From: Stegostoma tigrinum
Taxonomy: Eukaryota
NCBI RefSeq assembly: GCF_030684315.1
Contig: NC_081371.1
Location: 24,547,440 to 24,611,439 of the forward strand
Reading direction: 5' to 3'
Length of the DNA: 64,000 bases
Part shown: one piece after another, positions 3,030-63,273 of the stretch
How the letters are laid out: the number at the start of each line of letters is the position of its first letter
Numbering within the stretch: position 1 is the stretch's first letter
Translations under genes and position numbers: made by a program
The notes under the pieces: model-generated
Told to the model about the DNA's origin: nothing
Databases searched by the model: none
What the model saw: only the letters and a program-made list of their open reading frames with translations

Positions 3030-3740
3030 ACTTCAGCTGCAATATTCCGTTTAGTTCTGAACACTACTTCGTAGAAAGGGGATCAAGGATGTGGAGAGGC
3101 TGAAGAGGAAACTGATTAGAATGGCAAGAGGGATGCGAGAATTCTTACGTGGAGAGACTGGAGAAAGTAGCGCTGTTATCCTTGGAGTAGAAAGATGAAG
3201 GGAAAATGTAACTGAGATTTTCAAATTGTGAAAAGTTTGAATAAATTAAGTGAGGAGAAACTTTCCAGTGGCAGAAAGATTATTCATCAATCTAAGGAAC
3301 AAAAACAAAGTTGCTGGAAAAGCTCAGCAAGTCTGGCAGCATCTGTGAAGGAAAAGACAGAGTCAACATTTCAGGTCCAGTCACCCTTCCTCAGAACCAG
3401 ACCCAAAACATTAACTCTGTTTTTGTTCCTGATTTACAGCATCCAACGTTCTTTCAGTTTTTAGCAATCTAAGGTGATTGACAAAGGAATTAAAGATGAG
3501 GCAAGGATTAGATCTTAATACACTGAGTTGCAGCCATCTAAATTATGCTGTCTGAATGAGGGTGAGTGAGTGGGTGGCAGAAATGGAATTAATCATTTTC
3601 AAACTGAAATTCGGTAAAAACATAAAACACTCAAAGGACCATGTGGGAATACAGGAATAGGCCTAAGTGGATAGCTCAACCAGAGTGCCGGAATAAGCTC
3701 GATGAATAGCTTCCTACTGTGCCGTATCGTTCTATTACTC
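3030..3740 (+). mobile_element. Old CR1 LINE 3' fragment, interrupted by a hairpin element
   Basis: Degenerate CR1 ORF2 C-terminus and tail; continuity across the 3298-3464 insertion. Confidence 0.65.
3298..3464. mobile_element. PLE-derived hairpin element, family B (hammerhead-like core at centre)
   Basis: TSD CAATCTAAGG (3288-3297 / 3465-3474). The minus strand reads ctgaggaagggtgactggacctgaaatgttgactctg. Arms are inverted. Confidence 0.75.
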
Positions 3741-3852
3741 AAGGAATGAACATTCCTTTGTCCTCCTGCCTCTCAACCCTTGGTAATGGTGCCACAGTTT
3801 CTTGAGACCGCCTTGCCTCGAGTAATTGGCTTCAAAATCAAGCCAGAGACAT

Positions 3853-4410
3853 ACTCATATTCTGCTTGGGAACCCTGCAGCCCAATGGTATCAATGTGGA
3901 CTTCACAAGCTTCAAAATCTCCCCTTCCCCCCACCGCATCCCAAAACCAGCCCAGTTCTTCCCCTCCCCCCACAGCATCCCAAAGCCAGCCCAGCTCGTC
4001 CCCTCCCCCCACTGCATCCCAAAACCAGCCCAGCTCGTCCCCTCCCCCACTGCATCCCAAAACCAGCCCAGCCTGCCTCCGCTTCCCTAACCTATTCTTC
4101 CTCTCACCCATCCCTTCCTCCCACCTCAAGCCGCACCTCCATTTCCTACCTACTACCTCATCCTGCCTCCTTGACCTGTCCATCTTCCCTGGACTGACCT
4201 ATCCCCTCCCTACCTTCCCACCTATACTCTCCTCTCCACCTATCTTCTTTTCTCTCCATCTTCGGTCCACCTCCCCCTCTCTCCCTATTTATTCCAGAAC
4301 CCTCTCCCCATCCCCCTCTCTGATGAAGGGTCTAGGCCCAAAACGTCAGCTTTTGTGCTCCTGAGATGCTGCTTGGCCTGCTGTGTTCATCCAGCTTCAC
4401 ACTTTGTTAT
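3853..4410 (+). mobile_element. 5'-truncated Penelope-like element 3' end (GIY-YIG C-terminus, ~39-bp repeats, pLTR with mutated hammerhead)
   Basis: Encodes LGTLQPNGINVDFTSF, matching the end of the GIY-YIG ORF at 15941-16444. Direct repeat CAGAGACATACT at 3844-3855 / 4411-4422. Motif ctgatgaagggtctaggcccAaaacgtc at 4320-4347. Confidence 0.85.
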
Positions 4411-4679
4411 CAGAGACATACTTGATTGAGTGAGTCTGATATCACATGGGAAACCCTAAAGTAAGTCCAGTGTGTACGATAATGGAATATTAATACAGCC
4501 AGCGTAATTTTAGTGTAAGGCTTTACAATCACTGCACAGCAAAGGGCATGAAGAGAGCCTGCATGAAATGATTTTTAATGCCAGTATCTAAAGGACCAAT
4601 CCAAAGATGAAATTTGGAGGAGTTCAGAGTTAGAACCCAAAGGAAGATGAATTTGATAACCGATTCAAAACAGTCTTAG

Positions 4680-5200
4680 GTTATGCTCCATTGCAATGAT
4701 ATCTCTGTTAATGCACTGTTGGTGTTAGGCAGAGCTAGAGAGAAATATGGATCTCTAGCAATGGGAGAATGAAACCTGCTGCTGCCAGAAAAAATGTACA
4801 TCTTATTTATGAGTTCATTCTAGAAGGCCTAATCAGGTTAGGAAAGGTGAGTAAGTCACACACCTGTAAGTGCTATGGTATGATTCACGACCATCCACTT
4901 ACTCTGTCTTATGATTCCTCTTCTTTCATATCACTCTTCTCACTTGCTCACTTTGTTAGTATGCCCAGCCTCCTTTTGTGTACTTTGTTACTTCCTCATC
5001 TATCTGTCCACTATTGCTATTCACGCTAATAGTCATCCTCACCAAATGCACTATATCCATAGGGTCATGAAATCTCATACACGCTCTTTTATACATTGCA
5101 GATAAAGCTCAGAACATTAGTGAAAGAACCAGTGGAGGTCCTTCACCGATACCCAGTTAACAGCTACAGAGAAAGAAGAGCTAGGGCTCAGGAGCAGTTT
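4680..5200 (+). pseudogene. Decayed Harbinger-type Myb/SANT gene relic with intron
   Basis: Fragments NDISVNALLVLGRARE..., GLIRLGK|gtgagt and ag|...ERTSGGP...LTATEKEEL resemble the MSANTD/Harbinger 'FNDL.RS.K / RTGGGP..LT..EE' pattern. Frameshifted. Confidence 0.45.
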
Positions 5201-7610: not shown

Positions 7611-7744
7611 TGACTTCCCCTGACAGCAGGGCAGCATTTGATTGGGCATGCATGAAGAAGTACTGGCAAAATGGGAGTCAGCAGGAAGTGGGGGAAACTA
7701 TCCACTGTTTGGGGTCATACTTAACAATAAAGGAAGGTGTTACA

Positions 7745-7936
7745 GAGATAGTAGGAAATGCAGATGCTGGAGAATCTGAGGTAACACAGTGGAGAGCTGG
7801 ATGAACATAACAGGCCAAGCAGCATCAGAGGAGCAGGAAAGCTGACGTTTCGGGTCTCGCCCCAAAACGTCAGCTTTCCTGCTCCTCTGACGCTGCTTGG
7901 CCAGCTGTGTTCATCCAGCTCTACACTGTATTTTCT
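7745..7936. mobile_element. PLE-derived hairpin element, family A
   Basis: Inverted arms centred on ribozyme stem II (gctgacgtttcgggtctcgccccaaaacgtcagc). AATAAAGGAAG is repeated at 7726 and 7937. The tail is on the left arm only. Confidence 0.85.
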
Positions 7937-8772: not shown

Positions 8773-8946
8773 GATAGTAGGAACTGCAGATGCTGGAGAA
8801 TCTGAGATAACAAGGTGTAGAGCTGGATTAACACAGCAGGCCAAGCAGCATCAAAGGAGCAGGAGGGTCTAGGCCCGAAACGTCAGCTTTCCTCCTCCTC
8901 TGATGTTGCTTGGCCTGCTGTGTTCATCCAGCTCTACACATTGTTG
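8773..8946. mobile_element. PLE-derived hairpin element, family A
   Basis: Inverted arms; the right arm starts at ribozyme stem II (agggtctaggcccgaaacgtcagc). Confidence 0.8.
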
Positions 8947-9339
8947 CTTCAAAGTCAAGATCACTGTTGGCTTCAGTCAAAATGGACATGGAGGCCAAGT
9001 TTGACGCGTGCAGCATAAAAATAATGTCAAATGCTCCTGCTGAATTGGGGATATTGTCCAGACAAACAGTATACAGAGATATTAACCATATGTCTGCTAT
9101 TAACATCACTAATAATTTCTATTCTTGTGTCTTTTAAAGCTGATACTGCTACTGATTCCTCTTTGAACCTGTCTTCATGTTTTACTGTGCTATGCCACAG
9201 TAACTCGTTCTAAATGATAAATTCTCAAGAATGCAGACGATAACAGTGATTCTGGAAGACCAGATGAGGGGAGGGGGATTGCAGCGCAAAGTTGCTCCCA
9301 ATTGGACCAGCAATTTTCAACACAGCTTCAAAACCCTAA

Positions 9340-10165: not shown

Positions 10166-10601
10166 GATTTTAGGATTATTATGCACATGGGTCTAAATAA
10201 CAGAATTAATTTAAGTGATTACCCACTTACTCTGGAAAAGTCAGTAATATGATAAAGTTGTGTCCTTTTGTTTTGCTTCTGTCAGTGGAAAATTCGAAGC
10301 TGTTTGCCATCATGAATAATTCATCTGTAATCCTTTGACACATCAACAGAAAGCAAATAGGCTAACACTGCAGATGGCCTCAGTCCTAGCCTGAAGAAAC
10401 ATTAGATAATAAATTTGAAGGCTCTGTTCCTTTGCCATTGGTGTCTACACACATAACATCATATAAGGGGCTTCCTGATGAAGACAGCATCACATTCTAT
10501 CTGAGATAATGGGAACTGCAGATGCTGGAGATTCCAAGATAATAAAATGTGAGGCTGGATGAACACAGCAGGCCAAGCAGCATCTCAGGAGCACAAAAGC
10601 T

Positions 10602-10629
10602 GACGTTTCGGGCCTAGACCCTTCATCAG
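10602..10629 (-). ncRNA. Minimal type-I hammerhead ribozyme motif (PLE-associated)
   Basis: CTGATGA-a-GGGTC-tag-GCCC-GAAAC-GTC. Core intact; stem III reduced to the palindrome ACGT; stem I only ~2 bp. Confidence 0.7.
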
Positions 10630-11476
10630 AGAGGGGGATGGGGGGAGGGAACTGGAATAAATAGGGAGAGAGGGGGAGGCGGACCGAAGATGGAGAGTAA
10701 AGAAGATAGGTGGAGAGGGTGTAGGTGGGGAGGTAGGGAGGGGATAGGTCAGTCCAGGGAAGACGGACAGGTCAAGGAGGTGGGATGAGGTTAGTAGGTA
10801 GCTGGGGGTGCGGCTTGGGGTGGGAGGAAGGGATGGGTGAGAGGAAGAACAGGTTAGGGAGGCAGAGACAGGTTGGACTGGTTTTGGGATGCAGTGGGTG
10901 GGGGGGGAAGAGCTGGGCTGGTTGTGTGGTGCAGTGGGGGGAGGGGATGAACTGGGCTGGTTTAGGGATGCAGTAGGGGAAGGGGAGATTTTGAAACTGG
11001 TGAAGTCCACATTGATACCATATGGCTGCAGGGTTAAACTGGTGAAGTCCACATTGATACCATATGGCTGCAGGGTTGATACCATATGGTATCAATGTGG
11101 ACTTCACCAGTTTCAAAATCTCCCCTTCCCCTACTGCATCCCTAAACCAGCCCAGTTCATCCCCTCCCCCCACTGCACCACACAACCAGCCCAGCTCTTC
11201 CCCCCCACCCACTGCATCCCAAAACCAGTCCAACCTGTCTCTGCCTCCCTAACCGGTTCTTCCTCTCACCCATCCCTTCCTCCCACCCCAAGCCGCACCC
11301 CCAGCTACCTACTAACCTCATCCCACCTCCTTGACCTGTCCGTCTTCCCTGGACTGACCTATCCCCTCCCTACCTCCCCACCTACACCCTCTCCACCTAT
11401 CTTCTTTACTCTCCATCTTCGGTCCGCCTCCCCCTCTCTCCCTATTTATTCCAGTTCCCTCCCCCCATCCCCCTCT

Positions 11477-11504
11477 CTGATGAAGGGTCTAGGCCCGAAA
11501 CGTC
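11477..11504 (+). ncRNA. Minimal type-I hammerhead ribozyme motif (PLE-associated)
   Basis: ctgatgaagggtctaggcccgaaacgtc, the mirror copy of 10602-10629. Confidence 0.7.
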
Positions 11505-12467
11505 AGCTTTTGTGCTCCTGAGATGCTGCTTGGCCTGCTGTGTTCATCCAGCCTCACATTTTATTATCACATTCTATCTACCTCCTTTTCCAATGTCAGA
11601 CCCTTAATCACATCTGTACTCCCACCTGACCAGATAACTGGGTTCATTATAACAAACCCACCGTGTACTGCAACAAAGGAACTTGATGGTGCTCTGTGCA
11701 TTACATCTCACACTTTTATTGCAAAGTCTCTGATAACTCAAGTCCTGCAAGCACTAAATGCAGACTTAAAGGGAATATAGGTTTTGAGTTTGGAAAGAAA
11801 ATTTGCAGCAGTATGTCCGTAAAGGGCAACTTCAGCAACATCTGTTCCATTTGGACAAGATGAAAGCAGCAAGTAAGGACTGTAGTCACATGATAATAAA
11901 TATTGGCAAGTGTTAATCGCCAAGTAATGGGCATTCAGCAATAATGGAGGGCATTGGCCCTTAACTCAAAAATTCTTCATATAAGTATTTTTAAAGGGAT
12001 GTAAGAAAGAAACGTTCTTCAGCAATTATCTAGCTGTCTTCTGATATTACACACCATTGTTACAAATTTACAGCAAATATTAAAATTTAGTACTGACAGC
12101 AGATTCAGGCTTTCAGAGTAATGTAGAAGATTAAAAGCTTTCCTCTATAAACACCCTATGTTGTACCTTATGTGGAGGTGTGGTATGTGACAGTGTACAG
12201 TCCTTTCCTTCCATGCAATCCTTTGGGAAAAATAACTAATAGTATAACTTATGGACAGAATAGCCACTTTGGTTTAATAGTGAACTGTTATATTGTATGC
12301 AGCATTAAATAGAAGCACTGTAGACAAGATACCTCCTGCAGAAATTATTTTAAAAATCCCACTTTCACAGTGCTGACTTCTTGTTAAAGAATTATTTCTC
12401 AGACACAGCTTGTGAGTATCTCAATCAAATACCTTCTCAGATGTTAAGCCATGATACAAAGATTTAG

Positions 12468-15575: not shown

Positions 15576-16411
15576 TGAGATAACAAGGTGTGGAGCTGGA
15601 TGAACACAGCAGGCCAAGCAGCATCTCAGGAGCGGGAAAGTTGACATTTCGGGTCTAGATCCTTCATCAGAAATGGGGGAGGGGAAGAGGATTCTGAAAT
15701 AGATAGGGAGGGGGGGAGGCAGGTCGAAGATGGATAGAGGAGAAAATAGGTGGAGAGAAGGCAAACAAGTTAAACAGGCGGGGATGGAGCCAGTAAAGGT
15801 GAGTGCAGGTGGGGAGGTAGGGAGGGGATTGGTCAGTCTGGGGAGGATGGACAGGTCAAGGGGGCGGGATGAGGTTTGTGGGTTGGAAATGGGGGTGTGG
15901 CTTGAGGTGGGAGGAGGGGATAGGTGAGAGGAAGAACAGGTTAGGGAGCCGGGGACGAGCTGGGCTGGTTTTGGGATGCGGTAGGGGGAGGGAAGATTTT
16001 GAAGCTTGTGAAATCCACATTGATACCATTGAGCTGCAGGGTTCTCAAGTGGAATATGAGTTGCTGTTCCTGCAACCTTCGGGTGGCATCGTTGTGGCAC
16101 TGCAGGAGGCCCAGGATGGACATGTCATCTGAGGAATGGGAGGGGGAGTTGAACTGGTTCATGACTGGGAAGTGCAGTTGTTTATTGCGAACCGAGCGTA
16201 GGTGTTCTGCAAAGCGGCCCCCAAGCCTCTGCTTCGTTTCCCCGATGTAGAGGAGGCTGCAACGTGTACAGCTAATGCAGTATACCACATTAGCAGATAT
16301 GCAGATGAAGCTCTGCTCGATGTGGAGAGTCTTCTCGAGGCCTGGGATGGGGGTGAGGGAGAAGGTGTGGGGGCAGGTGTAGCATTTCCTGCGGTTGCAG
16401 GGAAAAGTGCC
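15576..16411 (-). mobile_element. Penelope-like element fragment with open GIY-YIG endonuclease domain and pLTR
   Basis: ORF 15941-16444 reads GTFPCNRRKCYTC...NVVYCISCTRCSLLYIGETKQRLGGRFAEH...EQQLIFHLRTLQLNGIN. It is followed by the family-A 3' end. The Cys-rich linker suggests a Neptune-type PLE. RT is absent (5' truncated). Confidence 0.92.
15643..15670 (-). ncRNA. Hammerhead ribozyme motif in PLE pLTR (slightly mutated)
   Basis: ctgatgaaggatctagacccgaaatgtc. Confidence 0.55.
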
Positions 16412-17999
16412 CCGTGTGCCTGCTCCTGCCCTATATCCCACCAAATCTTTCTAGTTCATGTACTTATCCAAATGTATTTTAAGCATTGTAAATGTATCCA
16501 TATCCATCAGTTCCTCAGGAAGTCCATTCCACATGTAAATCACCCTCAATGCAAAAAAATTGCCCCCCTTTTTTTTAAAATCTCTCTCCTCTCACCTTAA
16601 AATGTGCCCCCTAGTCTTGAAAGCCACCATTAATTCTATCTATATCCCTCATTATTTTTTAACTTTCATGTTCTCTCTCCCCCATTTCTGTCTCTAGCCA
16701 TGCTTCGACAAAATAGAACAAAGATGTCAAAGAGCTGGCAAATACCCTAACCCTCCAGAGTGATGAAGAACTGTACCTAAATGTAACATGAAAGATATTG
16801 AGTCTTTTCTGCCCTGATGATCACTATTACCTGTTCTAATGATAAATTTTGTGGTCCTTGTGGTCCCGAAGATTAGAATTATGAAGCTGGTGACATTGCT
16901 TGCAATTTTCTCATTGTAATTACACAAATGCCATCATAGACAGCTTCTGCATTGTCATAATCCTGCCAGTTAAAATTGCATGGGTGGGAATAAGTTGAGA
17001 ATGTATCATGGCTATTTGTCCACAGTCCTGTCCTGCTCAAGCCACAGGGTGTGGGTTTAAAATCAAGCCTTTCATTTATGTCTCCTCTCCTTCTTTCTCC
17101 TGAATTTCTTGTCATTCTTCCTTTCCATTTATTTATCTCCATCGTTTGCCATTGTTAATTCTCTCAGTTTTAGTTTATTCATTTCTCTTACTTATTCCTA
17201 TCTCTTATTTATACCTGTCTCCTAATTCTATCTTTAGTTTCTGTGTGCTTTTCTCCAAAGAACCAGAGGGGAAATGAGGAGAAAGCATTTTACTGAGCAA
17301 CTTGTGACCTGGAATGCACTGTCTGAGCAGGTTGGGAAAGCACATTGAACAATATTCACCAAAATGGAGTTGGATAAATACTGGAAAAAAAATGCGTGGC
17401 TATGGGGAAGTGCAGAACAGTGGAAAGAATTGGATAGTTGCTTCTCAATTCTGACACGGACACAGTGATCCCTTTAGCTGCAGTATGATGCTACCTATCT
17501 CTCCCATTTGTTTCATCTTTATTCTGCTTCATATTCCTCTCTCTCCGATTGTTCTCCCAGCTGCTGTTATCTCCCTTCTTCCAACTGTCCTGTTTTTCTG
17601 TATTTTTTAGTCTCATTCTTACTAATAGTTTCCCTCTTGTTCCTCCTTATATATCTCCATAATTGTCCTTGATTTGTGTTTTTTTTCTGCTTATCTGTCC
17701 CTCTGGTCTACCTCTACCATTGCCTACCCGTCCGCTTCTATATATCAGATATTTTCAATTGTACTGAACTAATTAGAATAGAACTGGTTCCATTACTTTT
17801 TCCAATCTGATGGATATACCGACTCAGTTTGATAGCATGTTAATGCATCCTCTAGCCTGAGACTGGAAGGCTCCAGCATTCTCAGTTAACCCATACCGCC
17901 CAGTCACCATAAGAACCTGGAAGCCTTTACTGCTGCAACCCTAAATTTTACTTAATTTTGACAGGACTGTTCCTTTAACGCCTGTGCTGGCTATGAATA

Positions 18000-19872: not shown

Positions 19873-20054
19873 ATAACAGTGTAGAGCCGGAGGAACACAG
19901 CAGGCCAGGCAGCATCAATGGAGCGGGGAAGTTGAAGAAGGACCCCGAACCGAAACGTCAGCTTTTGTGCTCCTGAGATGCTGCTTGGCCTGCTGTGTTC
20001 ATCCGGCTCCACACTGCGTTGTCTCTGACCCCAACACCTGCAGTTCTTGCTATC
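19873..20054. mobile_element. PLE-derived hairpin element, family A
   Basis: TSD TCCCAGTGACAGAAG (19858-19872 / 20055-20069). The right arm starts at the hammerhead core (tgaagaagg...ccgaaacgtcagc) and carries the tail. Confidence 0.85.
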
Positions 20055-21129: not shown

Positions 21130-21900
21130 CATTTATCTCCTGTGAGGCTCGATACATCTAACATTGCATCATTGTGTCATGGTGAAGCTGATGATAGGAT
21201 TATGCAGCACAACTTGTCTGCAGTGTGCTGCAAGGTTCCCCAGACTGATCCAAACGTTGGCATCTCATTGGAACCTCTACTGCACCATAGCCCTGCTGGA
21301 AGAGTGGGCTGCATTGTATGTAAGATAACACAGTGTGGAGCTGGATGAACATAGCAGGCCAAGCAGCATCTGAGGATCAGGAAAGCTAATGTTTCGGGTC
21401 TGGACCCTTCTTCAGAAATGATTTTTGAAGAAGGGCGTAGATCCGAAACTTCAGCTTCCCTGTTCCTCTGATGCTGCTTGGCGTGCTGTGTTCACCTAGC
21501 TCCACGTGTTATCTCAGAGTCTCCAACATTGGCAGTTCCCACCATCTCTGCATTGTATGTACCTGGGTCTCAGTTAGGTGTTGTGTAACCGATTCATCAG
21601 CCATGGTTGCAGACCTTCTCTCCAGTAACCATCTTTGTAAAGCATTGGCCTTGAAGTAAAGCAGGCATGTTAGAGTTTGCAAGGATGTAGGCATTGTGGC
21701 ACCTTAACAGTGTTCCTGGCAGAGGGTTTCTGGCACAGGCTTCTAAGATGTGGTTCTGATGATCACAGATGACCTGTTCATTCACTGAATAGCATACTTT
21801 TCTACTAATGAAGTCAGCTGCGTGATGGTATGGTGCTGTCCTAGTGCAGGGCTGGAAAATTGAACATTTTTCTTGAAGTTGAGAATCCCATTTTTCTGAT
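21130..21900 (-). pseudogene. Decayed PIF/Harbinger (HARBI1-like, DDE_Tnp_4) transposase
   Basis: FISRKVCYSVNEQVICDHQNHILEACARNP...CHNAYILANS resembles 'FVNRKGFHSINVQ.VCD....CARYPGS.HD..IL..S'. GTLQHTADKLCCII follows downstream. Confidence 0.8.
21323..21547. mobile_element. PLE-derived hairpin element, family A, with back-to-back hammerhead motifs
   Basis: TSD CTGCATTGTATGTA (21309-21322 / 21548-21561). Centre gacccttcttcag-aaatgattt-ttgaagaaggg. Confidence 0.87.
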
Positions 21901-22377
21901 CTCACCAAATTTTCCCATTGGATTCACCATTGCCCAGACCATTCAGCAGCCGAGAATATTTAGCCCTTTATAAAGAATTTGTTCGAATGTTGAGAATATT
22001 TCTCCCATGTTCAGATGCACACTACCAAATCATCAGTACGCATTGAGATTGCATTACATTTCAATAACCTTGTTGGTTAATCATTGGAAAGTTGCTGTTG
22101 CATTTTTAATTCAGAACAGCATGACATTCCATTGATAATGTCCATCTAAGATTAAAAAACTGATATTTCTTTCCATTTATGAAGAAAAGTCATATCAGTC
22201 TCGAGATATAAACTTTAGGTTGAATCTCACCAGAAATCAGTATTATTTTCATTAAGATTCATAGAGGGTTTCTCTCAGCAAGGCAAAATGAATTTTCTTG
22301 TGCTGTTGCTAAAGAGCCACCTTATTAACTCGATACCATGCCCCCATCCATGCTAGTCCAAATATCCTCCTTACCAT

Positions 22378-22608
22378 TAAAAACCAAAAGAACTGCGGAT
22401 GCTGTAAATCAAAAACAAAAGCAGAAGTTGCTGGAAAAGCTCAGCCAGTATCTGAGAAGAAAAATCAGAGTTAATGTTTTGGGTCCAGTGACCCTTCCTC
22501 AGAAATGAGCTTCAGCTCTGAGGAAGGGTCACCGGACCCATTAACTCTGATTTCTCTTCACAGATACTGCCAGACCTGCTGAGTTTTTCCAGCAACTTCT
22601 GCTGTTGT
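22378..22608. mobile_element. PLE-derived hairpin element, family B
   Basis: TCCTCCTTAC repeated at 22365 and 22609. Centre gacccttcctcag...ctgaggaagggtcaccggaccc. Confidence 0.82.
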
Positions 22609-31090: not shown

Positions 31091-32430
31091 ACATTCAGGA
31101 AAGATAGGAAAGATGAGCACATACATAAATAGTTCAATTAACATCACAATATCCTTCTCAGCTGACAGTCCTAATTTGTATCAAAGTACTTCTGCCACAG
31201 ATATTATAATTAATGTGTAATTATCAATATTTGACCTCACCACTGAAAAGCTCAAAATCCTTTTCCATGTGAAACAAAACCTCTGGAAGCATTAAAGTTA
31301 TCCTGGACATATAATCAGTTCATTTTATTTACTTGGCGAGAACGTAAATTTTAAAGTAGATGCATGTGTTTAATTGGCATAATCCAAGCTGCTCTGCTGT
31401 ACAGCTGCTAATGTTTCTTTGATAATTTTAATAACCAAATCTTTATTAATGAGTATTGCCAGATTAAAGCTCTGCCAGTGCTTGCTCTAATTATGTAAGG
31501 CTAATTGGTGAATATTTTACCTGAGTTGATATCATAGCTATCTGAATAGATAGAGGCTAAAGAAATAAACATGTTATTGTCATGCTTGATGACACTCAGG
31601 GCTACTTCGAGTTGTTTACACAACCTGGTAGTTCAGAACACAACTCACTTTGTGAGAGGGTGAAGATGGTTGGGTAGATTTGTCTTATTTGATAAGTCAT
31701 TTTGTTTGTGGCACTGTATCCTGCCTCCATTCTTACTACATGTGCTCCAAATGTTTGGAAATTTGACATTCTGATTGTAACCTGGCCTGAAGTGTCTGAA
31801 ATATGTCAAAACAATGGTTTTTTGAAAGGAACTTTTAGTATGAATTTGAGCCCAGCAGTACACATGTTTGGGCCCTTGGGCGAAACACACCAGATGTCAG
31901 CTTGATAATGATATTAACATATCCACTTCTCGAGTCTGCTGAAAGTATGCAAACCTGGCAGGTTGTGATGTCAATCAATATGCAATTCCAGTTTGATCCC
32001 AGTGGTGCCATTTTGAAGCTCTGATCTTTGACCATTGGCCTGTATTAACCTTGCATGATTGAGTGTGCATTACACAGCATGAAGGAGTTCTTCATCAGCA
32101 GTATTTCAAAGGATCCTCACTGATGACAAGCTATTTGCTGGCTAAATCATTCAATTTTGAGGAAATTAGTGAACCCCACATGAACAGTAATCTGGAAAAT
32201 CATACGGGAAGACACATATCCCAATCCTGGCAAGCTGGAGAAATGCATCCCATTAAACTGCTGCTGGAACAGAGGTGACAGGGAAAATCATGTGCTGGCA
32301 GTGAAATGGTAACTAACATTCTGATCACTTCATTTGAACTGCCAACATCCTTTCTCCCTCCAGCACTCCACCCTTTTACCCCTTATCCCTCACTGTTTGC
32401 ATAAATGCTGTCCCCTCCACACTTCACATT

Positions 32431-34119: not shown

Positions 34120-34835
34120 GCTTCCAGTTGCCTGCCGCTTCAACATGCCATCATGTTCCCTGGCCAACATTTCTGTCTCAGGCCTGGTACAGTGCTCTAG
34201 GGAAGCTCAGAACAAGCTCGAAGAGCAGTACCTCATTTTCCACTTAGGGACCTTGCAGCCATCAGAACTCATTATCAATTTCAATAACTTAATTGAACAC
34301 CTTCTTCCATGTCTTTTACCTACCCCATACCCCAGGCCTTGATATCACATGGGCCGCTTTCATCACTGCCAACCCAATTTCACCCACTAGTTGTCCACAT
34401 CAACAGCTTTTCTTTCTTCTGAAGAAGGGTCACTGGACCCAAAAGATTAACTCTGTTTTCTCCTTCACAGATGCTGCCAGACCTGCTGAGCTTTTCCAGC
34501 AACTTTTTTTTGTTCCTGATTTACAGCATCTGCAATTCTTTTGGGTTTTTTTTTCTTTCTTCCCAGTTCATCTTGGTCCATCCCTTCGTCTGCCCAACTG
34601 TTGTTTTCTCTCTGTCTGGGCTCCATCTCCACCTACCGTGTAATCCTTTCTCTCTGCAACTTCCTCCGCTCCACCTGCATCCTGCTCCTCCCCGCTGTCT
34701 TCAGCATATTTACCATCTTTCCTAGCTACAATCAGTTCTGAAGAAGGATCACTGGACCTGAACCATTGACTCTGTTTTCTGTCCTTAGATGCTGCTAGAC
34801 CTGCTGAGTTTCTCCAGCAATTTCTGTTTGTATTG
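34120..34835 (+). mobile_element. PLE family-B remnants: GIY-YIG C-terminus and two tandem pLTR/hammerhead-like ends
   Basis: KLEEQYLIFHLGTLQPSELIINFNN; ctgaagaagggtcactggaccc at ~34419 and ctgaagaaggatcactggacct at ~34738. Confidence 0.78.
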
Positions 34836-39787: not shown

Positions 39788-40493
39788 TCCATCTCACTTA
39801 GAGCCTTGTAAGATTCCACCCTCTGTTTCTCTCCACAGATGCTGCCTGGCCTGTTGAGTATTTCCAATATTCAATTTTTAAAATTTATATTTCAGATGTC
39901 CAGGATCTGCAGTAGCTTGATTTTGACGAGTATTAAATTAGTTGAACCAATGACGCTGTCTATCGGACAGATGATTGTGCAATGTAGAATCTCGCCAAGC
40001 GAACTGCCTGATCTAGAGTGATGCTTGTGTTTGTTAGATGTTTTATCATTTGTTAATATATTATCTACTTTCTATAGTAGTTCAGCTGGATGCAAAATAT
40101 TCTTAAAATCTGTTGCACTGATTGCAAATTATCAGAGAGCTCTCCTGTAGTTAGCATTCTTCTTTGTCCTCCCAGTCCTACATTTAAAAAAAGATTGTTC
40201 ATTTGTTCTCCTCCATTGTGGAACTTGAGGAATGCGGAATAGCTGCCATCTTTGCCCACAATATCTGTAATCACCAACAGTGCATTCCAAAAGAATTCCA
40301 AGGAATGAAATGCCTTGAAACACCACATTAGGGTGCTTGAGCAGTGCAAGTATGATTTATTTTAAAATCAGAGAGCCGAAATTTTGACATAATGAGGGCA
40401 CATATTCACAGCAAAATTAATCACATTTTTGCAAAATTCAGCTTTTCATGGAGACCTTAGTCTTTTCAGGAAATTGGTAAACAACTCTTGCCA

Positions 40494-47595: not shown

Positions 47596-49904
47596 GCTTC
47601 CATAGTCTTTGAACTTTCCTTCTGAGTTGGAATTAGGTTTCTAAAATTCTCCTGTATCATTCTAATTCTGACTTTCTGACTTCCCCAGAGCTGCAACCTC
47701 ATTTTTAATTGTTTCCATGGCCCTTGCTTTCCCTAACAGCAACCATATCTCACTATGGCAGTGATGTTCAATTTGAGCTGTAAACACTTCACTTACTTCC
47801 AACTTATTGAGCCTCTAAACTGTGCCTTTTCTATAAAGTTTACCTGTTGCCCACCAGGAATTTCAACTTTACTGGTGGAGTCACCAGTGTCCAAATGTCT
47901 TATGGCAGAATGATGACTTAGGACCACAGCTACAGAGCATTGGTACCCAATGCAATTGCTTTGGTGATTTATGTCTCATATATCAGTTTACCTTTAGCAG
48001 ATATAATGATGATGTCATCACTATATCACAGCATGTGACCTGAAGGAGGAAAGCTCCAAACAGTTAAGGAGGTTGGGTGGAGTATGGGAGGAGGAAGCCC
48101 ACAGGAGAGGCTGTTGTGATATCCACCTGACTGCCTTACTTGGATGTATGGTGATGCTGAGGCAGGACAGGAGACAGCGGGGGCATTGTTGGTACTGGCT
48201 GCAGCATTGGAAAAGATTAAAATAACACCAATGGAAACAACTACTAGGCTGTGATTGCAGCTGTAGCCAGTGCGTCCCAACAGATGCGTGTTCACGTGAG
48301 TGAGAGAAGGCTTTAATTACCTCCTGCATGTCAGCAAGACACTGGCTCTAATTAAATGCTGGACTGCAATTTCAGTGGGCTCCTATCTGCCATCAGGAAG
48401 ATCCAGAGTCGCATTAATAATCCTCAATTGGGTATGCTCCGTTGCCAGGCAATTAACCTTTGTGGCATTGACTCCTCCTCTCGCAAAATCATTGGGAGTT
48501 GGCAACGTGTTAATTGGCTTACCAGTCACATCACATCCTAACTTGCTCCCATATTTGCCTGCACAAGCTTGCATTCTCTGCACTAACTCTGCTTTTCTTC
48601 CTACAGTTGCTGCCATATCTGCAGAATATTAACAGAATTTAGTTTGAAGTTTAGATTTGTAGCCAAGGATTTGTTGATCTATTGGTTTTCTCTTTTGATG
48701 AATTTTATGGACAAAAAACTTTAAGTTGTCTATTCTGTTTGAAGGTGCTGAGTGACATCTATGCACTTCCAACAAAAGTTGTTTTTAATTTCAAATTTCC
48801 AGTATTTGCAGTTTTGTTTTTTTTAAAGACTGGTTTCAGTGACTTGTCCCATGTGGGTGTAACTGTAGATTGGTTGGTTTGTCAAATGTTGCTTGCATGA
48901 TCAGGAATAATCCTGCTGTGTGGAGGCTTATTGATTCTGTGAACTTCCAAACCACAGGAAAGGTCATCCCATTCCTTGAAGTTGTCAGTATGTCAGCATG
49001 CAGCGAATAGTAATAAAGTGGAAGAGGCGGCCTGCTCTGACACATCCAGTCACATATAGGCACTGTGGGTTATTAACAGTTGTGAATATAGGGCCTGATT
49101 TTTAGATTCATATATTTGTCCTCCTTGTTTAATTTGTTGAAGTGCTAGGGGGATAGCCAAAGGAATCCATGTTCTCCCTCCTTTGTTAGCTGTGACGCAG
49201 GATGCTGCAGCAACTGCCAAAAACTCCTGGGAAGTGTGAACTCATGTGTAAAGTGCATAAACATGCAAGTGTGCAGGATATTCAATGAAGACATTTATTG
49301 TTATCTATTGCAAATAAAGCACACTGTGACACTAATCTACTAAGTGGTAAGTTTACATTGCAAAAATTATAAAGTAAGCCAGGTAATTAATCATTTCACA
49401 CCAGTGAGGTTATACAGAAAGCTTGAGCTAAATTACTGTTTCATGTGGGATCCCACTGAGTGGGATCTCACTCAGATAATTAAAATATGCAAATACAGTT
49501 TCCTCTGCCTGTAATACTGCCTCTTTCTACATTTAGAAGTGTGCCTCATAAAATCAGACACATTGGTCTCGATCTTCCAACTGGAAGACAGTCTTTGCAG
49601 CCAGGCTCCCTGAAAGATGTGCGATGGAACGCCTCAAGATTGTGACACTTCCTTTCTACCCAGGAACTTTAAAAATCCAATTGGTAATTATTCCACAGTT
49701 AAACCTCCAGGAAGAGCTACAGACCAGAGTTAGAGTCAGAGTGTTCACTGACCTGAATATTTCCTGAAGAAAGTAACTAGAGGGATTACAACTTGCTATA
49801 ACTCCAAAATAACTATCAAACTGATCCCCACTGACCCCTTCCATTCCTCCCCCCCCCCCCCCCCCCGACCACCACCATAGCCTTCCCCATGACTGTGACA
49901 TCCT

Positions 49905-53308: not shown

Positions 53309-55890
53309 TGTCGTGGTAGGATTAAACATGATATCATCAAACCAGATAATTAAGGGTTAATTGGACATGACAACGAGCAGTTGAATAAAGTGGAAAAGTA
53401 TGTGGGAAATATGCTGAGTACAAAAGCAATTTATTTTGACCGAGGAACAACCATGTGACACTGCACTTGTGAGAATTGTCCTGTCTGTGCGTCACGTGGA
53501 GCCACCTGGAGGTGTTTTTCTGCATAATGGAAAGTAATGAAAATACCAGGGAATGATGGTTCAGCATTTCAGCTTAGATTCAGAATAATATTAATATCGG
53601 GGACTTCACCTTGGCCTAGATTGCCAATCGTGTCAGGAACCCTGAGATCTTCAGACCAGCTGTTATAAAGCAGGGTCCCTGACAGATAGGAGGCAGTGAG
53701 ACTCATTGTTGAACATGTTAAAGTAGCTTCAGCACTCATTAGTTTACATGTGTTTCTAATATATCTAAAGTAGATTACTGCTTATATGTATTTACTGCTT
53801 AATTACATCCATGTATTTAGCTCACTATATTAATTTACCACTTCGTATATTGATCATATGCCAATATTTATATTTTACCACCAATAAACCTCTTAATTAG
53901 TATAGCTTTACTCGTAAAGTTGTGCCTAACACACAATAAACAGTTTTCACTGTATTTCTATATGCAAGTGACAATAATTCTAAATGTAAAACATGTATTT
54001 TGTTACATCCCACCAAACCCTCTATTGAACCATACAGTTTGGCACCACAAACAGGGTTTGGTGTGATGTTCAAAATATTCAAAACGGACAACCTAAGAAG
54101 CCTGAGTTGTTGTGTATCTCAGGATGAACCAATAATGATGAGGGATTTGGATCATTAGCAAATTTGCTAGCATGACTGGGGCGTCCCCAATCATGGGAAA
54201 CTCTCTTTAAGGAGGGTTTGGCAGGGGGTGCCACCCTGCCTGGGCTGGTGAAAGACTGCTTGGTTGGAGTGGGCTTCCAAAAGCAGAAGGAGAGCCTCCC
54301 CTAAATGAGATGGAAATTATTAACTGCTCTGAGGAATGAGCATAATGCTGGAGTGGAGTGTGAGCAGGAACGTAAACAGTTAAAGGCTGCCTTGGCTCAA
54401 TTGGAGGAACAAAGCGTCATGTTGAATGAGGTGGCTAAAACAGCCCAGGTTAGAGCTGAGAGTGTGGAACAAAAGTAGAATCAAAACTGCTTGCTGTTTG
54501 GAGCAGTGCAGTATAAAAAGAAACCTGGGCGAAGGCAGTGGCAAGATGACCCAGTGAAATATGTGTGTTGTTACCATCAAACTGGGACCCTGATCATTGG
54601 GATGGCAATGTGCAGTATTCATCAGACTCAGAAGATGAGTGTTCTGAGGGGAAAGGGCAGATTGATGGGTTGGGCATTGAATTAGTAGCCACCCCTTACC
54701 AACTAACAAGGTGAAGCAACAGGAAAATGCTGCTGCACAGTACATGCATACAGTACCAGACTATTTGATGACAGACTTACAGGACATGGGCAATACATAT
54801 AAACAGCAGTCCGGGGAATCATTAGCATCATGACTGGAGGACCAAGGCACTGCTGATAGTCAGATAGCTCCAGAGGAAATAAAAATATATGGCAGTTGAG
54901 CACAGATCATCAAATTGACAATGTCATTCGGAACACTTGGGAATTGCAACTTTGTTACAATACGTACAAGTGTAAATTAGGTACAAGTATCAACCAGCTG
55001 TAGATTGGAAAATAGGATCATTTTCCTGGACAACTACAGGAGAATAGCAAGATAATAAAATGTGAGGCTGGATGAACACAGCAGGCCAAGCAGCATCTCA
55101 GGAGCACAAAAGCTATACAGGAGAGTTGCTTTTGGTTTTTATACAGGAGAGTATAACTAGATTGAGGGAATGGACTACACAGATCGGGGTTTGTAATCAA
55201 GATTTTCAGGGATATTTACAGCAGGGATGAGAAGTTGGCAAATGAAGTTTGGACCTCCACACTTGAGAGGTGCTTTGTTGGTATTATTCGGACCAACTTA
55301 GCATTGATTGGTGGAGAAAGTCATTTTGTTACTTGGACAGGTAGAAGATGTGGATGAAGGAAAAGTGGCAGTGAGAATGACGAGGATGGAATACACAGGG
55401 TAACCACCTTCAGAGGCAGGTCTGGACCGACAAAAGGGATTAGTAAACGGGACATGTTTACTGCACTTGTATGAGCTGGGGTCAATAGGACAGAAATTGA
55501 TGGAATTTCCACAAATGCTTTGTATACTCTGTGGAGGCGGTGTGGTGTCCCTAAGTGAGATGGGGTCCCAGGGAATCACAAGCGAGAGAAGTACAGTCAG
55601 ACACTGAAAATGCTGGGGAGGCTGTGAGAAGTGATAACCTTGCTGGCCATGAAGATAAACACATGTACCCTACATTAGAGGAGGTAGAACAGGCATGGCT
55701 AGTGAGTAATCCTATTAATTAGGGGTGGGACCAGTACTCCAGAATCTCAGTGAGCGAAGTGCTCATGGAGACCTGTGGCCACGTATACCAATAACTGGAG
55801 GGACTTAATAGGCAAGGAGACATGGCATATTACATATTGACGTTGAAAGTGGTAATAATATAAACTTCTTTGATATAGAAAACATTGATG
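53309..55890 (+). mobile_element. LTR retroelement relic: 5' LTR (~53309-54036), PBS, decayed gag-like region
   Basis: TG...CA candidate LTR with TATAAA (~53664) and AATAAA (53883). TGGCACCACAAACAGGG (54040-54056) follows 3 nt later and resembles a tRNA-Lys PBS. A broken coiled-coil ORF follows (ECEQERKQLKAALAQLEEQ). Confidence 0.55.
55049..55114 (-). mobile_element. 66-bp family-A PLE end beginning at the predicted ribozyme cleavage site
   Basis: Matches the post-GTC part of the 10.5-kb element. Flanked by TACAGGAGAATAGC (55035-55048) / TACAGGAGAGTTGC (55116-55129). Confidence 0.75.
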
Positions 55891-56015: not shown

Positions 56016-56025
56016 ACTTCCCAAA

Positions 56026-60497: not shown

Positions 60498-60680
60498 AGA
60501 CAAAAACAGAAATTGCTGAAAAATCTCAGCAGGTTTGACAGATCTACCGAAGGAAATCACAGTTAACATTTCCAGTCTGGTGACCCTTCACTTGACCCAA
60601 ATTATTACTCTGATTTCTCTCTACAGATGCTGTCAGAACCACTGAGTTTACAAGCAATTTCTGTTTTTGCTTCTGATTTA
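60498..60680. mobile_element. PLE-derived hairpin element, family B (older)
   Basis: Inverted arms aaaaacagaaattgctg / gcaatttctgttttt centred on ctggtgacccttca-cttgaccca. Confidence 0.7.
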
Positions 60681-61749
60681 CTAACCAGCCATCTGGCTTA
60701 TAACTCATCTTTACAGAGTTACGTGTTTTTACCTTAAGTTTGATGCTTGCCCTAGCCTCTTAAATTAAACAGGGGTGGTGGATTTACAAAGTATACAATT
60801 TTTCTATATTAAAGGAATATAATTATTCTGCAGTATGCCCTTAACTGTCTCCCACCAGTCTCGACTCATTCATCCCTTAGCCTGGTTTGGCAGTTCATTA
60901 ATAGCTCAGTTTTATTTCCATATCATTGTGCTTATTGAAGTTTTAAATACTAGCCTGAGACGCAATTTCCTCCCTTTCAACCTTGCTGTAAAATTTGATC
61001 ATATTGTGATTGTTGCTTTCTAGGGGTGCTTTTACTCTCAGGTCATTAATTAATCTTTTATTAATGAATTAATTATCTACCAATATCAAGCAAGAGAGAG
61101 AACGACTACTTCAATGTGAAAAGTTTGAAAGTGAATGAACATGTTCAAGACTATATAAATATCTTTAGTACAGACACTGAGCTAATGTTCACTGCTGTAT
61201 TAATGTTCCAGTATCAACTGCTCCTTTAACCTTGGCTGTACTTCCTTTCAACAAAGCCCAGGAGGGGACTTGATAAGTTACCAGCTAACCTTTTATTAAG
61301 TAAGGAGCCATTTCATTTCCCTGGTTTCCTGCTTTCCTGCATTCAGGTTTCACATGAGCAAGTGCATAGGGGAATTGAATCTAAAAAAGCTCTTTGATCC
61401 TTAAAGTTGCAGGTTGTTGTCCTGTAATCCTTGATATCAGGAATGATGCAGCAAGGTAGTGGATGTGAAGTACTGACAAGATGCCTGTAAAAAATAATAA
61501 CAAAATAATCGATTCAGAACCATTCATTGATTAATGTCCAAGAATGAAACAACAGTACATATCTGTAAGTTCTTCTGCAGTTGTATCATAGGATATAAAT
61601 TGTTGGTAATCCACCTGTTTAGCCATATTATGACACACCTCCATGGCAAATTGGACTTGATCCCAGACCTCCTTGCCCAGAGGTACAGACACTGCCACAG
61701 CAACTTTAGACCTTCCACAGGAATATTATATCTGAAAATATGAATCAGA

Positions 61750-62210
61750 GGTAGGTCTAGGCCACTTCAGCTTGCTCCACCATCCATATTCTCACCTTCC
61801 TTTCACCTCTTGCTCATGAAGAGTTGAAACACTTCTGCCTTAATATTCAAAGACACAACTTACACTGCTTTTTGAGGAAGAGAAATTCAAAGACTATAAG
61901 GCTCTGTAAGAAAAGAATCCTCTCAAGTGTTCTAAATCAGCAATCCTTTATTTTTAAACGATGATCCCGAGTTTGAGATTCTTCCACAAAAGAAAACACC
62001 CTTTTTACGTCCACTTGTCAAGACCCCTGTATCTTGTATGTTTCAGTTGTTATTTCTTACTCTTCCAAATTCTAGGGACACAAGCCTAGCCTGTTCAACC
62101 TTTCCTCATAAAACAATCCTTCCATTCTAGCTATTAATCTAGTAAACATTCTCTGAGCAGCTCCCAATGCATTTACATCCTTCCTTAACGACAGAGACCA
62201 AAAATGTAAT
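61750..62210 (-). mobile_element. CR1 LINE 3' fragment
   Basis: The reverse complement carries a YEERLNRLGL-type motif and a CR1 tail. Confidence 0.7.
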
Positions 62211-63104
62211 CAGGAATATGACACTTAGGAGCTGGTAAGTTAGTATATTTTCGTAACCTTCTCCCATTCCAGTGAGCTGTAGACTTTCAGCATTACAGAT
62301 TTGCTAGACAAAGGTTAGCAGGTTTCCCAGTACATCACAACCTTACATGCTTGAGGATTGACCTGTAAACACAGTTTGAATTAGAAATGCAATTCTTGAG
62401 TTTCCTGGAACTTTATTGAACATTTCATTACAAATTAATTGATTCCTCACAATGTTTGCACAGAGAATCAGCGTTAAAACTTCAGGCCATCATGGTGGTA
62501 GGTCATCAACCTGAAACATTAACTCTGTTTCTCTTCACAGATGTGCCTAACTTGATGGATAGTCATTTGTGTAGGCCTGAGAAAATATACCAATAACAGA
62601 TCCCAGATATCTCATAGTGATGTTGGATGTGATATAAACTGACCAGGATATCAGAAATCCCCTATACTGCGCCAAGCAAAAGTAACAGTATCTTATGCTT
62701 ATTTGAGAGGGCAAACAAGTCCTCAATTTAAATCTCCTTCGAAAGACAGCAGCACCTCAATATCAACTTGGAACGTGGCTTGAACTATGGATCACATAAC
62801 TTGGCTATCAAGCATCACTGGTTTTGCCTGTAAGGGAGCTCAGTGTGCACATAAAATGGGTGTGAAGTCCATCTCCATTGACTAGTGAAGGAGCCTGTGC
62901 AGTTCATCATCTTGGGAAGCATGAGGCTGCAGGATTCTGTGTATGTGTGAGAAACAACAATGGGCTGATTACATCAGCTGCAGTTTCATCTGATCTGACA
63001 TGTTACTTAGACGTTGCAGGTGCTGTTCATGCTCTGTCTTAAACATGCACAGCTATGGGAAGCCCAAACAGTTCAAAAATAAATTAACACAGCTTCCAGG
63101 TAAG

Positions 63105-63273
63105 AGATAGTAAGAACTGCTGATGCTGGAGTAACGCAGTGTGGAGCTGAGTGAACACAGCAGGCCTGGCAGCATCAGAGGAGCAGGAAAGGTGAAGTTT
63201 TAGGTTGGGACCCTTCATCAGAAATTTCTGAAGCTTTCCTGCTCCTCTGATGATGCCTGGCCTGCTGTGTTCC
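63105..63273. mobile_element. PLE-derived hairpin element, family A
   Basis: TSD TCCAGGTAAG (63095-63104 / 63274-63283). Centre cccttcatcagaaatttctgaag. Confidence 0.82.

Follow-up and report, generated by a model that had tools for sequence, protein, structure and literature searches.

Short head-to-head Penelope-like insertions whose 5' ends cluster at a predicted hammerhead motif in a shark genome

Introduction

Complex insertions of EN+ Penelope-like elements (PLEs) have been described as an inverted, 5'-truncated pLTR with a TSD and, optionally, a tail of 30-40 bp (PMC8557442 and PMC3846280, excerpts), and palindromes at the head-to-head junctions of Adineta Penelopes were interpreted as self-priming (PMC3846280, excerpts). 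The protein of a Poseidon PLE of Anolis (PAc), a predicted dimer, cleaves both DNA strands and extends each of them without need for ribozyme cleavage, and two internal start sites define the tail (PMC11167929). Minimal type I hammerheads of PLEs occur in Schistosoma as pairs on opposite strands, 100-700 bp apart (PMC4209133, excerpts), and non-LTR retrozymes, which derive from pLTRs, are small and non-coding and carry type I hammerheads, have been described in vertebrates including a chondrichthyan (bioRxiv 10.64898/2026.07.22.740005, excerpts).

The insertions analyzed here, from a 64-kb stretch of the Stegostoma tigrinum genome (hereafter the window), resemble those of EN+ PLEs, which likewise have a head-to-head inverted copy, a tail at one end, TSDs (8-10 bp) and junction palindromes; on the excerpts of PMC8557442 and PMC3846280, the inverted pLTR, tail, TSD and palindromic junction are already published for PLEs. 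They differ in comprising two arms of ~60-130 nt with no ORF between them, in occurring more than once per 10 kb and in having their hinge at the hammerhead, a link not seen in those excerpts. PAc belongs to a different clade, the linker here being of the CX4CX2C, Neptune/Nematis type, and its hammerhead lies ~85-90 nt upstream of the first start site, against ~66 nt here; the main text of PMC11167929 does not take up short head-to-head products or 5' breakpoints in the genome. Retrozymes, as described in the excerpted preprint, are direct tandem arrays with a complete ribozyme per unit, whereas the pairs in the window are inverted, usually have one or both cores broken and present no strand with two tandem ribozymes; the sole direct hammerhead pair (34419/34738) is a partial tandem and not a retrozyme array.

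Results

The parent element and its families

The preliminary description of the window had reported the same 3' ends attached to GIY-YIG coding sequence, and this was borne out by a Pfam match (PF01541 at 15941-16447, E=2.4e-6) and by tblastn, which also matched the copies at 3853 and 34120. A whale-shark PLE protein matched at 15965-16429, 34091-34291, 3818-3931 and 10957, and the window sequence is 84% identical to a whale-shark RT-EN protein. The linker CNRRKCYTC (CX4CX2C), present in the window frame and in P0001 and confined to family A, fits the CX2-5CxxC motif between RT and EN of Neptune/Nematis; the RT domain is absent from the 64-kb window. Judged from its sequence, the parent appears to be a Neptune-type EN+ Penelope-like element.

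Families A and B had been regarded as distinct, with the hairpin design arising independently in each. The two are instead homologous (~70% alignment over 86 nt, E=4e-6) and have hammerhead position, internal helix and tail in common, so the design was inherited. The solo young copy at 55050 is 100% identical to the long element at 10503 (Table 1).

Table 1. Penelope-like features in the window. Negative and positive arm ends are relative to the predicted hammerhead cut site of the element.
Feature	Coordinates	Strand	Structure	TSD
Reference hammerhead-like motif, young family A	11473..11510	+	CTGATGA box, extra A, 4-bp stem II, GAAAC-GTC	
Family B partial hairpin	3298..3464	.	Tail-less left arm to ~-31; right arm starts ~-17, ~55 nt lost internally, bears tail	10 bp
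Family A hairpin (7745)	7737..7936	.	Left-arm tail; symmetric fold inside stem II palindrome (~-13)	11 bp
Family A hairpin	8773..8950	.	Tail arm ends +6/+7; tail-less arm from -20	
Family A hairpin	19873..20054	.	Right-arm tail, from -26; left arm ends -1 to +2; 3-nt overlap at junction	15 bp
Family A hairpin	21323..21547	.	Right-arm tail; blunt join	14 bp
Family B hairpin (22378)	22375..22608	.	Left-arm tail; 3-nt filler	10 bp
Old family B hairpin	60498..60681	.	Arms to ~-25 and -17; 3-nt overlap	
Family A hairpin	63105..63273	.	Tail arm to -31, then 6-nt fold-back	10 bp
Long young family A head-to-head element	10503..11568	.	Tail on left	14 bp
5'-truncated family A copy	15576..16429	-	Linker, GIY-YIG end, C-rich 3' region, hammerhead core 15647-15670, no tail	
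5'-truncated family A copy	3856..4410	+	GIY-YIG end to 3' end, no tail	12 bp
Family B direct partial tandem	34091..34835	+	GIY-YIG end, hammerhead (34419), tail, then second truncated copy, hammerhead (34738)	
Solo young family A 3' end	55050..55114	-	5' end exactly +1	9 bp
Solo 3' end, third related family (C)	32428..32530	+	Intact hammerhead boxes, 4-bp stem I, 5-bp stem II	
Degenerate solo B-like 3' end with tail	39822..39920	+	5' end ~+2 to +4	
Degenerate solo B-like 3' end	48582..48640	+	5' end ~-3 to +1	
Degenerate solo B-like fragment	62500..62545	+	5' end ~-11 to -24	

Structure of the head-to-head insertions

All eight hairpins previously noted were recovered, each consisting of two head-to-head Penelope 3' ends over ~167-234 bp, and eight in 64 kb upholds the stated density of more than one per 10 kb. 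The copies are ~6-16% diverged from their family majority, and arm ends and overlaps were placed on them by visual inspection. In seven of the eight, the arms are 81-95% complementary or align to their own reverse complement; 3298 is only partially a hairpin, owing to the ~55 nt missing from its right arm. A TSD of 10-15 bp, perfect in six of the eight, was not found in searches of the flanks of 8773 and 60498 (a score of at least 10 arises at 1/300 random positions), and the full tail on one arm holds for seven, with only ~12 nt of tail in 60498. Eight extra nucleotides separate TSD from tail in 7745. Both arms carry the whole hammerhead in 21323 (to -31/-32) and extend to ~-35 in 22378, and the right arm of 63105 resumes exactly at +1, with its 3' end cut short.

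The claim that the hinge lies at the hammerhead in every case describes all 16 arm ends of the eight short hairpins, which fall between -35 and +6 of the predicted cut, but had omitted a ninth, long element. This element (10503), the youngest of all, has arms that are 100% complementary and folds far from the ribozyme: its hinge (11025-11086), ~420-435 nt upstream of the hammerhead, falls within sequence coding for the GIY-YIG C-terminus, at another palindrome of 8 nt (CCATATGG) with a templated 42-nt duplication. Counting it, perfect TSDs of variable length (10-15 bp) are present in 7/9 head-to-head elements, and the tail is on one arm in full in 8/9 and in part in one.

The hammerhead motif

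Cleavage of the reference motif is predicted between 11504 and 11505. In common with the minimal type I PLE hammerheads (PMC4209133, excerpts), the motif combines CUGANGA and GAAA boxes with an extra base before stem II, a G10.1-C11.1 pair and palindromic 15.2-16.2 positions, as seen in an alignment of 11 copies, and has no helix III. Stem II spans 4-5 bp here and 7-8 bp in Schistosoma (PMC4209133, excerpts), stem I is only 2 bp in young family A, and the two predicted motifs of an opposite-strand pair either lie 0-30 nt from each other or have a single broken core in common.

A covariance-model search against Rfam (E up to 5) gave 23 matches, none of them to a hammerhead, as expected for forms without helix III, and the identification rests on core boxes and stems. 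TGA-GAAG columns are invariant across the 11 copies, the first stem II pair is G-C in seven and G-U in four, and pairing is retained at 93% in stem II and 72% in stem I. Helices I and II contain four two-sided changes; their score is reached by 14/500 shuffles, and the sequences are related. Taken alone, the reference motif folds as an imperfect 29-nt palindrome, and in fold predictions the active form is less favorable than an extended hairpin or a duplex. Its self-complementarity (-12 kcal/mol) is among the highest of all windows scanned, and is equalled at +22 and +62 in young family A. Many sub-threshold microRNA matches fall on the hairpins in Rfam.

5' ends cluster at the hammerhead

The proposed concentration of 5' boundaries at the hammerhead was upheld across copies within the 64-kb window: 20 of 26 ends lie within -35 to +6 of the predicted cut. 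The stop rate per 100 nt is 2.4 in -36..+10, 0 in both +11..+45 and -37..-200, and 0.4 beyond; the clustering, in a zone defined after inspection of the data, is significant for the 26 ends (p=7e-10) and for 17 insertions taken with one end each (p=4e-6). Planted 30-nt fragments were recovered in 18/20 cases, so missed detection does not account for the gap among arms of at least 30 nt. No short end (n=20) extends past -35. Tail and tail-less arms stop at a common place (means -20 and -19), which indicates that position, and not length, sets the stop; a fixed-length cDNA model was rejected on the same comparison (p=0.0015). An initiator-like motif coincides with the stop position in old family A (-31) and in B 34730 (-33) and is absent there in young A and B 34120; such motifs occur eight times per 300 nt of old A. 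Our literature search found no report of hammerhead-centered PLE breakpoints.

Among the run X1 entries listed, most 3' loose ends fall where tail-less arms mostly end (15576-15578, with 1196, 1830 and 1940 contigs), and 1774 contigs end at the tail-bearing position 15573.

Junctions and comparison of arms

Within the window, the junctions of the nine head-to-head elements all differ. Overlaps at the eight short junctions total 17 nt against 7.4 expected (p=0.014), with at least 2 nt in five (p=0.023) and none in two (21323 and 22378). Elements 7745 and 10503 have an evident junction palindrome; in four others the palindrome is short, and in the remaining three it is weak or absent. Arms differ by 13.2% within elements and 16.6% between elements, and each of the five family A arm pairs shares one or two non-majority bases (shared-variant permutation, p=0.07). 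The arms of 19873 differ at 11/57 sites, with different subfamily types at +2 to +17 and each arm resembling a different subfamily.

Discussion

In L1 twin priming, two primings at one site are joined through microhomology, and an internal segment is inverted without duplication of the 3' end. We consider it moderately probable that the hairpins are twin-primed insertions made de novo, with both cDNAs probably terminating at the hammerhead or close to it, where they would be joined; the hairpins would then likely be one-off by-products of insertion. The mechanism is taken by analogy from a different PLE clade (Poseidon). The GIY-YIG endonuclease would cut the two strands in staggered fashion, 9-15 bp apart, and each would be extended, as the TSDs and in vitro work on a related PLE suggest. 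The tail-bearing cDNA would be primed at the distal site, and the other at the proximal site, which is shared with solo copies. The stop would be set by position and, as a cause for the observed clustering, a template whose 5' end lies at the hammerhead 5' edge is favored, with nearly an even chance of being right; such a template would be a short, mostly uncut pLTR transcript copied from internal start sites, although some templates, a minority, may have been cut by the ribozyme at +1. The two cDNA ends would then be trimmed and end-joined, often via short inverted matches supplied by the self-complementary hammerhead, and the products would be dead on arrival. Weighing against this account are the absence of the initiator-like motif at the stop position in young A and B 34120, the other positions that equal the hammerhead in self-complementarity, the two short junctions lacking overlap and the non-majority bases shared within family A pairs, which a single template or later gene conversion would also give.

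An unlikely alternative is that a single molecule folded back at a palindrome, primed its own copying and was integrated as a hairpin. The folds of 7745 and 10503 at palindromes, the identical arms of the latter, the 6-nt fold-back in 63105 and shared variants within pairs at about twice background all agree with such self-priming. Against it, the arms of 19873 represent two subfamily types, 21323 and 22378 lack junction overlap, and tail-less arms mostly end at the proximal site common to solo copies. Furthermore, in three elements (8773, 3298 and 60498) the tail-less arm is the longer and holds sequence absent from the tail arm, so self-priming would need added trimming.

Slightly less probable still is that reverse transcriptase stalled just past the hammerhead on a C-rich template (G-rich cDNA) or RNA structure, with no RNA end involved. 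C runs begin just where family A stops (-31/-32), and the cDNA strand of young A carries G-quadruplex-like runs, but family B stops at the matching place without them (four G3 runs, no quadruplex pattern) and none of the six long arms stops between -37 and -200, within the C-rich tract. Stalling at the ribozyme fold itself, one of two routes by which the preliminary description had the ribozyme fix the cDNA boundary, appears to fit poorly, as six arms copy the entire motif and run a further 3-6 nt upstream past the CTGA box before they end.

The other route, cleavage as the general rule, with reverse transcriptase running off cut RNA at +1, we regard as improbable. It is favored by the conservation of core boxes and stems, in which some pairs have changed on both sides; exact +1 starts are seen in the young solo copy at 55050 and the right arm of 63105, and the left arm of 19873 and the copy at 48584 are compatible with +1. 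These are, however, 4/20 ends against 1.8 expected (p=0.08), and 13 of 16 hairpin arms read through the predicted cut and include at least 8 nt upstream of it, which implies templates uncut there. In run X1, no loose end falls at 15640-15642 among the six entries listed (a further 1469 lie outside the list), and 784 loose ends at 15633 give a consensus that runs on through the cut site; in PAc, catalytic mutants insert normally in vitro and RNA-seq ends at the cut site were not found (PMC11167929). The claim is accordingly not supported as a rule, while a minority of ends (55050, the right arm of 63105) may reflect cleavage.

Very improbable, in our estimate, is the suggested class of MITE-looking, self-propagating non-autonomous retroelements moved as units by the PLE protein. 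In every hairpin both strands still carry the initiation region, there are eight per 64 kb, and 3'-end depth in run X1 is about five-fold above GIY-YIG depth, which is not a copy number. Junctions are nevertheless unique in 9/9 elements and arms are barely more alike within an element than between elements; many copies with the same structure and junction, as in a SINE, were not found in the window. No dominant strand-change joint appears among the 15 of 220 listed in run X1, the best reaching depths of 114 and 34 against ~14-24 for long single contigs. Transcripts are also predicted to form stable duplexes in seven of eight hairpins (-66 to -142 kcal/mol; only -39 to -54 in 3298), which would hide the start site.

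MITEs have a hairpin shape, a fixed TSD and symmetric TIR. That the insertions are DNA-transposon MITEs resembling Penelope ends by chance or capture can be dismissed, since size and inverted-repeat shape alone agree, whereas TSD length ranges over 9-15 bp, the two termini are not symmetric and, in other copies, the arm sequence is continuous with GIY-YIG coding sequence, which supports the RNA-derived origin first proposed.

The role of the hammerhead in PLEs has been called unclear (PMC8557442, excerpts), its cleavage is dispensable in vitro (PMC11167929), and the head-to-head origin is debated between self-priming and two primings. Should joining guided by palindromes be the sole source of the clustering, the insertions would neatly illustrate PLE behavior that is already known. 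A broader reading, which we offer tentatively as a possibility, is that most shark Neptune insertions derive from short pLTR RNA with its 5' end at the hammerhead (a helix I-edge start or the +1 cut), and that a PLE dimer with two RNAs, sometimes of different subfamilies, primes both strands. If true, ribozyme cleavage and twin priming would have left fossil footprints by the many thousands in this genome, and these would offer in vivo evidence on PLE hammerhead function, of which our literature search found none. For annotation, such hairpins risk being mistaken for MITEs or microRNA hairpins. Each of these abundant short insertions records two start sites, two stop sites and one joint, and a genome-wide catalogue could therefore test both the role of the hammerhead and head-to-head formation from existing assemblies.

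Identity and structure of the hairpins

All eight short head-to-head hairpins of the preliminary description are present where it had placed them. Their target-site duplications (TSDs), said often to span 10-15 bp, are perfect in six of the eight and absent from 8773 and 60498, with a TSD score this good arising by chance at one in 300 positions, and the full tail, an extra ~30-35 nt at the 3' end ascribed to one arm only, was found in seven of the eight. The claim that the inversion centre lies at the hammerhead in every case is contradicted by a ninth, long and young element (10503-11568), which hinges at the palindrome CCATATGG, ~420-435 nt upstream of the ribozyme, with a templated 42-nt duplication.

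The window has a G+C content of 41%. Hairpin ends are joined to GIY-YIG coding sequence, as described, at 15965-16429, 34091-34291 and 3818-3931. At 15941-16447 the GIY-YIG frame has a match to Pfam PF01541 (E = 2.4e-6), and its closest relatives are RT-endonuclease proteins from whale shark (84% identity) and zebra shark (77%), which makes a shark the most likely source of the DNA. The linker of this frame, CNRRKCYTC, agrees with the CX2-5CxxC motif assigned in the available text of PMC8557442 to Neptune and, in the form of a zinc-finger-like linker, also to Nematis; we provisionally call the Penelope-like element (PLE) of the window Neptune type, on the basis of the linker motif. Families A and B, previously taken as distinct and as having acquired their design independently, are ~70% alike over 86 nt (E = 4e-6) and have in common a predicted helix formed by pairing of the tail with the body. 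Because the two families are homologous and have this putative helix in common, the hairpin design was inherited. The predicted pairing of the tail with the GATGCTG stretch is possibly the structure recognised by the PLE protein. A 24-nt family A pattern was absent (0 loci) from collections of metagenomes, prokaryote genomes and viruses.

Elements and other features located in the window
Position	Feature	Observation
7745, 8773, 19873, 21323, 63105	Short hairpins, family A	
3298, 22378, 60498	Short hairpins, family B	3298 partial, ~55 nt lost internally
10503-11568	Long hairpin, family A	Arms 100% complementary; 14-bp TSD; single tail
10503-10535	Tail of long hairpin	Predicted to fold back onto conserved GATGCTG stretch (11516-11570); likewise in both families
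10994-11110	Hinge of long hairpin	Tandem duplication of 42 nt, perfect, followed by a 16-nt palindrome; resembles the outcome of repeated re-priming as the arms were joined
32428-32530	Third related family (C)	Hammerhead motif better formed than any other in the window; stem I of 4 bp, stem II of 5 bp including a compensatory change
34091-34835	Two family B subtypes in direct partial tandem	77% alike downstream of cut site; two same-strand hammerhead motifs separated by 319 nt, well suited to a dimer cleavage assay
39138-39170	Isolated CTGATGA...GAAAC, short stem between boxes	Without a detectable linked PLE end; perhaps a chance match or an ancient copy
39392-39788	Tandem array, 33-nt unit	12 repeats, 92% matches; lies just upstream of a degenerate B-like PLE end
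43158-44897 (+)	579-codon open frame	No Pfam match; probably a large host exon; Atlas features (0.86-0.89) point weakly to coiled-coil CCDC34-like clusters
55050-55114	Solo young family A end	5' boundary exactly at predicted hammerhead cut site; 9-bp TSD; six extra nt on 3'-end side, one on 5' side
9777-10170, 28270-28458, 36481-36844, 47294-47592, 52518-52774	Further dispersed repeat family	At least five copies, 66-86% alike

A candidate hammerhead motif

Positions are relative to the predicted hammerhead cut, with the last base of GTC or GTT as 0 and the following base as +1. The CTGANGAAG box is kept in 11 motif copies, among which stem II (4-5 bp) is paired in 93% of cells and stem I, which is weaker, in 72%. 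Four two-sided stem changes were identified, and their covariation score was reached by 14 of 500 shuffles, a result that is not decisive as the sequences are related. An Rfam search of the window returned no hammerhead match. The motif agrees with the minimal hammerhead of metazoan PLEs in the available portion of PMC4209133, where cleavage was absent from single motifs and weak in dimers; here it is a candidate ribozyme. In folding predictions the young family A motif forms an imperfect palindrome of 29 nt, and two copies together pair into a long duplex.

5' ends cluster at the motif

The 5' ends of 16 short-hairpin arms, 4 short solos and 6 long arms were placed by eye from alignments, omitting the family C copy at 32435 and a degenerate copy (48743-48813), whose 5' ends are not definable, as well as weak profile matches such as 9348-9391 (E = 0.18). 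Twenty of these 26 ends fall between -35 and +6, in a zone drawn after the data were seen and in a single window. The stop rate per 100 nt is 2.4 in -36..+10, 0 in both +11..+45 and -37..-200, and 0.4 further upstream (p = 7e-10; 12/17 and p = 4e-6 counting one end per insertion). A profile census identified 15 family A arms, every one reaching +11 or +12, and 0 matches in the reversed window. Planted 30-nt fragments were recovered in 18/20 cases, rejecting a detection gap as the cause of missing short arms for arms of at least 30 nt, and planted ends of 20-25 nt were mostly missed (2/20 and 9/20 recovered). Tail arms begin ~33 nt closer to the 3' end than do tail-less arms, but the two kinds stop at one place (means -20 and -19). 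Fixed-length abortive synthesis was rejected (p = 0.0015, with 2/8 tail arms damaged). The clustering of 5' ends is real, and it is tied to position, because tail and tail-less arms stop alike despite their different starts.

Ribozyme cleavage had been proposed to set this boundary of the cDNA, and mostly it does not: at least 8 bases upstream of the cut site are present in 13 of the 16 hairpin arms, so their templates were intact at that site. Six arms copy the entire hammerhead motif, stopping 3-6 nt past the CTGA box. Exact +1 starts are limited to two ends, the young solo at 55050-55114 and the right arm of 63105, and +1-compatible short ends number 4/20 against 1.8 expected (p = 0.08). 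Contigs of sequencing run X1 were compared with 15570-16415, covering a 5'-truncated family A copy. No loose end, where a contig alignment stops, occurs at 15640-15642 among the six rows listed, the 784 loose ends at 15633 have a consensus that continues through the cut site, and depth dips over the hammerhead; the comparison is weak, the dip and the absent +1 row included, because it involves contigs only, the reference differs at 15634 and 15641, next to the cut site, and a further 1469 rows lie outside the listing. X1 may be the source of the window itself. According to PMC11167929, insertion in vitro is normal with catalytic mutants, and no RNA-seq ends were seen at the cut site.

Priming and joining of the arms

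Tail-less arms end mostly at the commonest X1 site, 15576-15578 (4966 contigs in the three rows listed), and a tail-bearing loose end is found at 15573 (1774 contigs), with the tail sequence at 15573 likewise present in runs X9, X11 and X18. In three elements the tail-less arm contains sequence missing from the tail arm, and the two arms of 19873 disagree at 11 of 57 sites, where one arm matches the young type over +1..+24 and its partner the type of the 15576 copy. The shared start site, the extra tail-less sequence and the mixed 19873 arms lead us to favour two primings, which would agree with the known PLE protein in that both strands are extended from two start sites. Derivation of both arms from a single template would fit the 1-2 non-majority bases common to both arms in 5/5 family A pairs (twice the background, p = 0.07) and the identity of the 10503 arms. 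In X1 the 3' end also contains directly duplicated short stretches (from 15615 back to 15577; depth 296), a hint that pLTR-like tandem forms of very small size exist too.

Junction overlaps in the eight short hairpins measure at least 6 (12 with two mismatches), 1, 3, 0, 2, 2, 0 and 3 nt, with a sum of 17 against a null mean of 7.4 (p = 0.014). The 7745 fold lies in the stem II palindrome, the 19873 join follows the register of the outer CTGA/TCAG helix, and the youngest element is joined at a palindrome distant from the ribozyme. Head-to-head PLE structures with junction palindromes, tails and 8-10 bp TSDs are explained by self-priming in the accessible part of PMC3846280. A pure palindrome account is opposed by two junctions without overlap and by the hammerhead window, which is not uniquely self-complementary.

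We conclude that the hairpins are probably de novo twin-primed insertions, for which the TSDs, the pair of start sites, stops tied to position, a different junction in each element and excess microhomology are directly observed; two primings, one per arm, would generate the arms, and end joining would unite them. The stop would be caused by a template beginning at the 5' edge of the hammerhead, a tentative reading that we place slightly below an even chance and favour because no short end passes -35 and families A and B stop at a matching place even though a C-rich turn at that position is restricted to family A. An initiator-like motif is present at the stop point in 2/4 A and B reference copies, a weak indication, with that of the B copy at 34730 located at -33; as a general cause it was rejected, and a possible splice acceptor ahead of helix I was likewise considered, neither being common to all subfamilies. 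RNA boundaries near the hammerhead have precedent, since in Drosophila Penelope the start site is 46 bp ahead of an intron of 75 bp (PMC2377424, available text) whose end maps at helix I (PMC4209133, in the portion available).

Relation to known elements

The proposal that the hairpins constitute a new non-autonomous class was not borne out: all nine junctions are different, and spread as units was not seen. Two strand-changing joints stand among the best 15 of 220, with depths of 114 and 34 against ~14-24 for long single contigs, in counts that are incomplete. Miniature inverted-repeat (MITE) identity was rejected on variable TSD length and asymmetric ends, and non-LTR retrozymes were rejected because the hairpins are not direct tandem units, as retrozymes are in the accessible text of bioRxiv 10.64898/2026.07.22.740005. 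In the full-text collection searched, which includes few subscription papers or Repbase entries, nothing was found on shark PLE hairpins that are short and lack an ORF, or on breakpoints located at the PLE hammerhead. The PLE hairpin architecture is already published, as far as the available parts of PMC8557442, PMC3846280 and PMC8969392 extend, and minimal hammerhead pairs on opposite strands are already noted in that of PMC4209133. The structure is ordinary, and the real positional signal makes a role of the PLE hammerhead testable.
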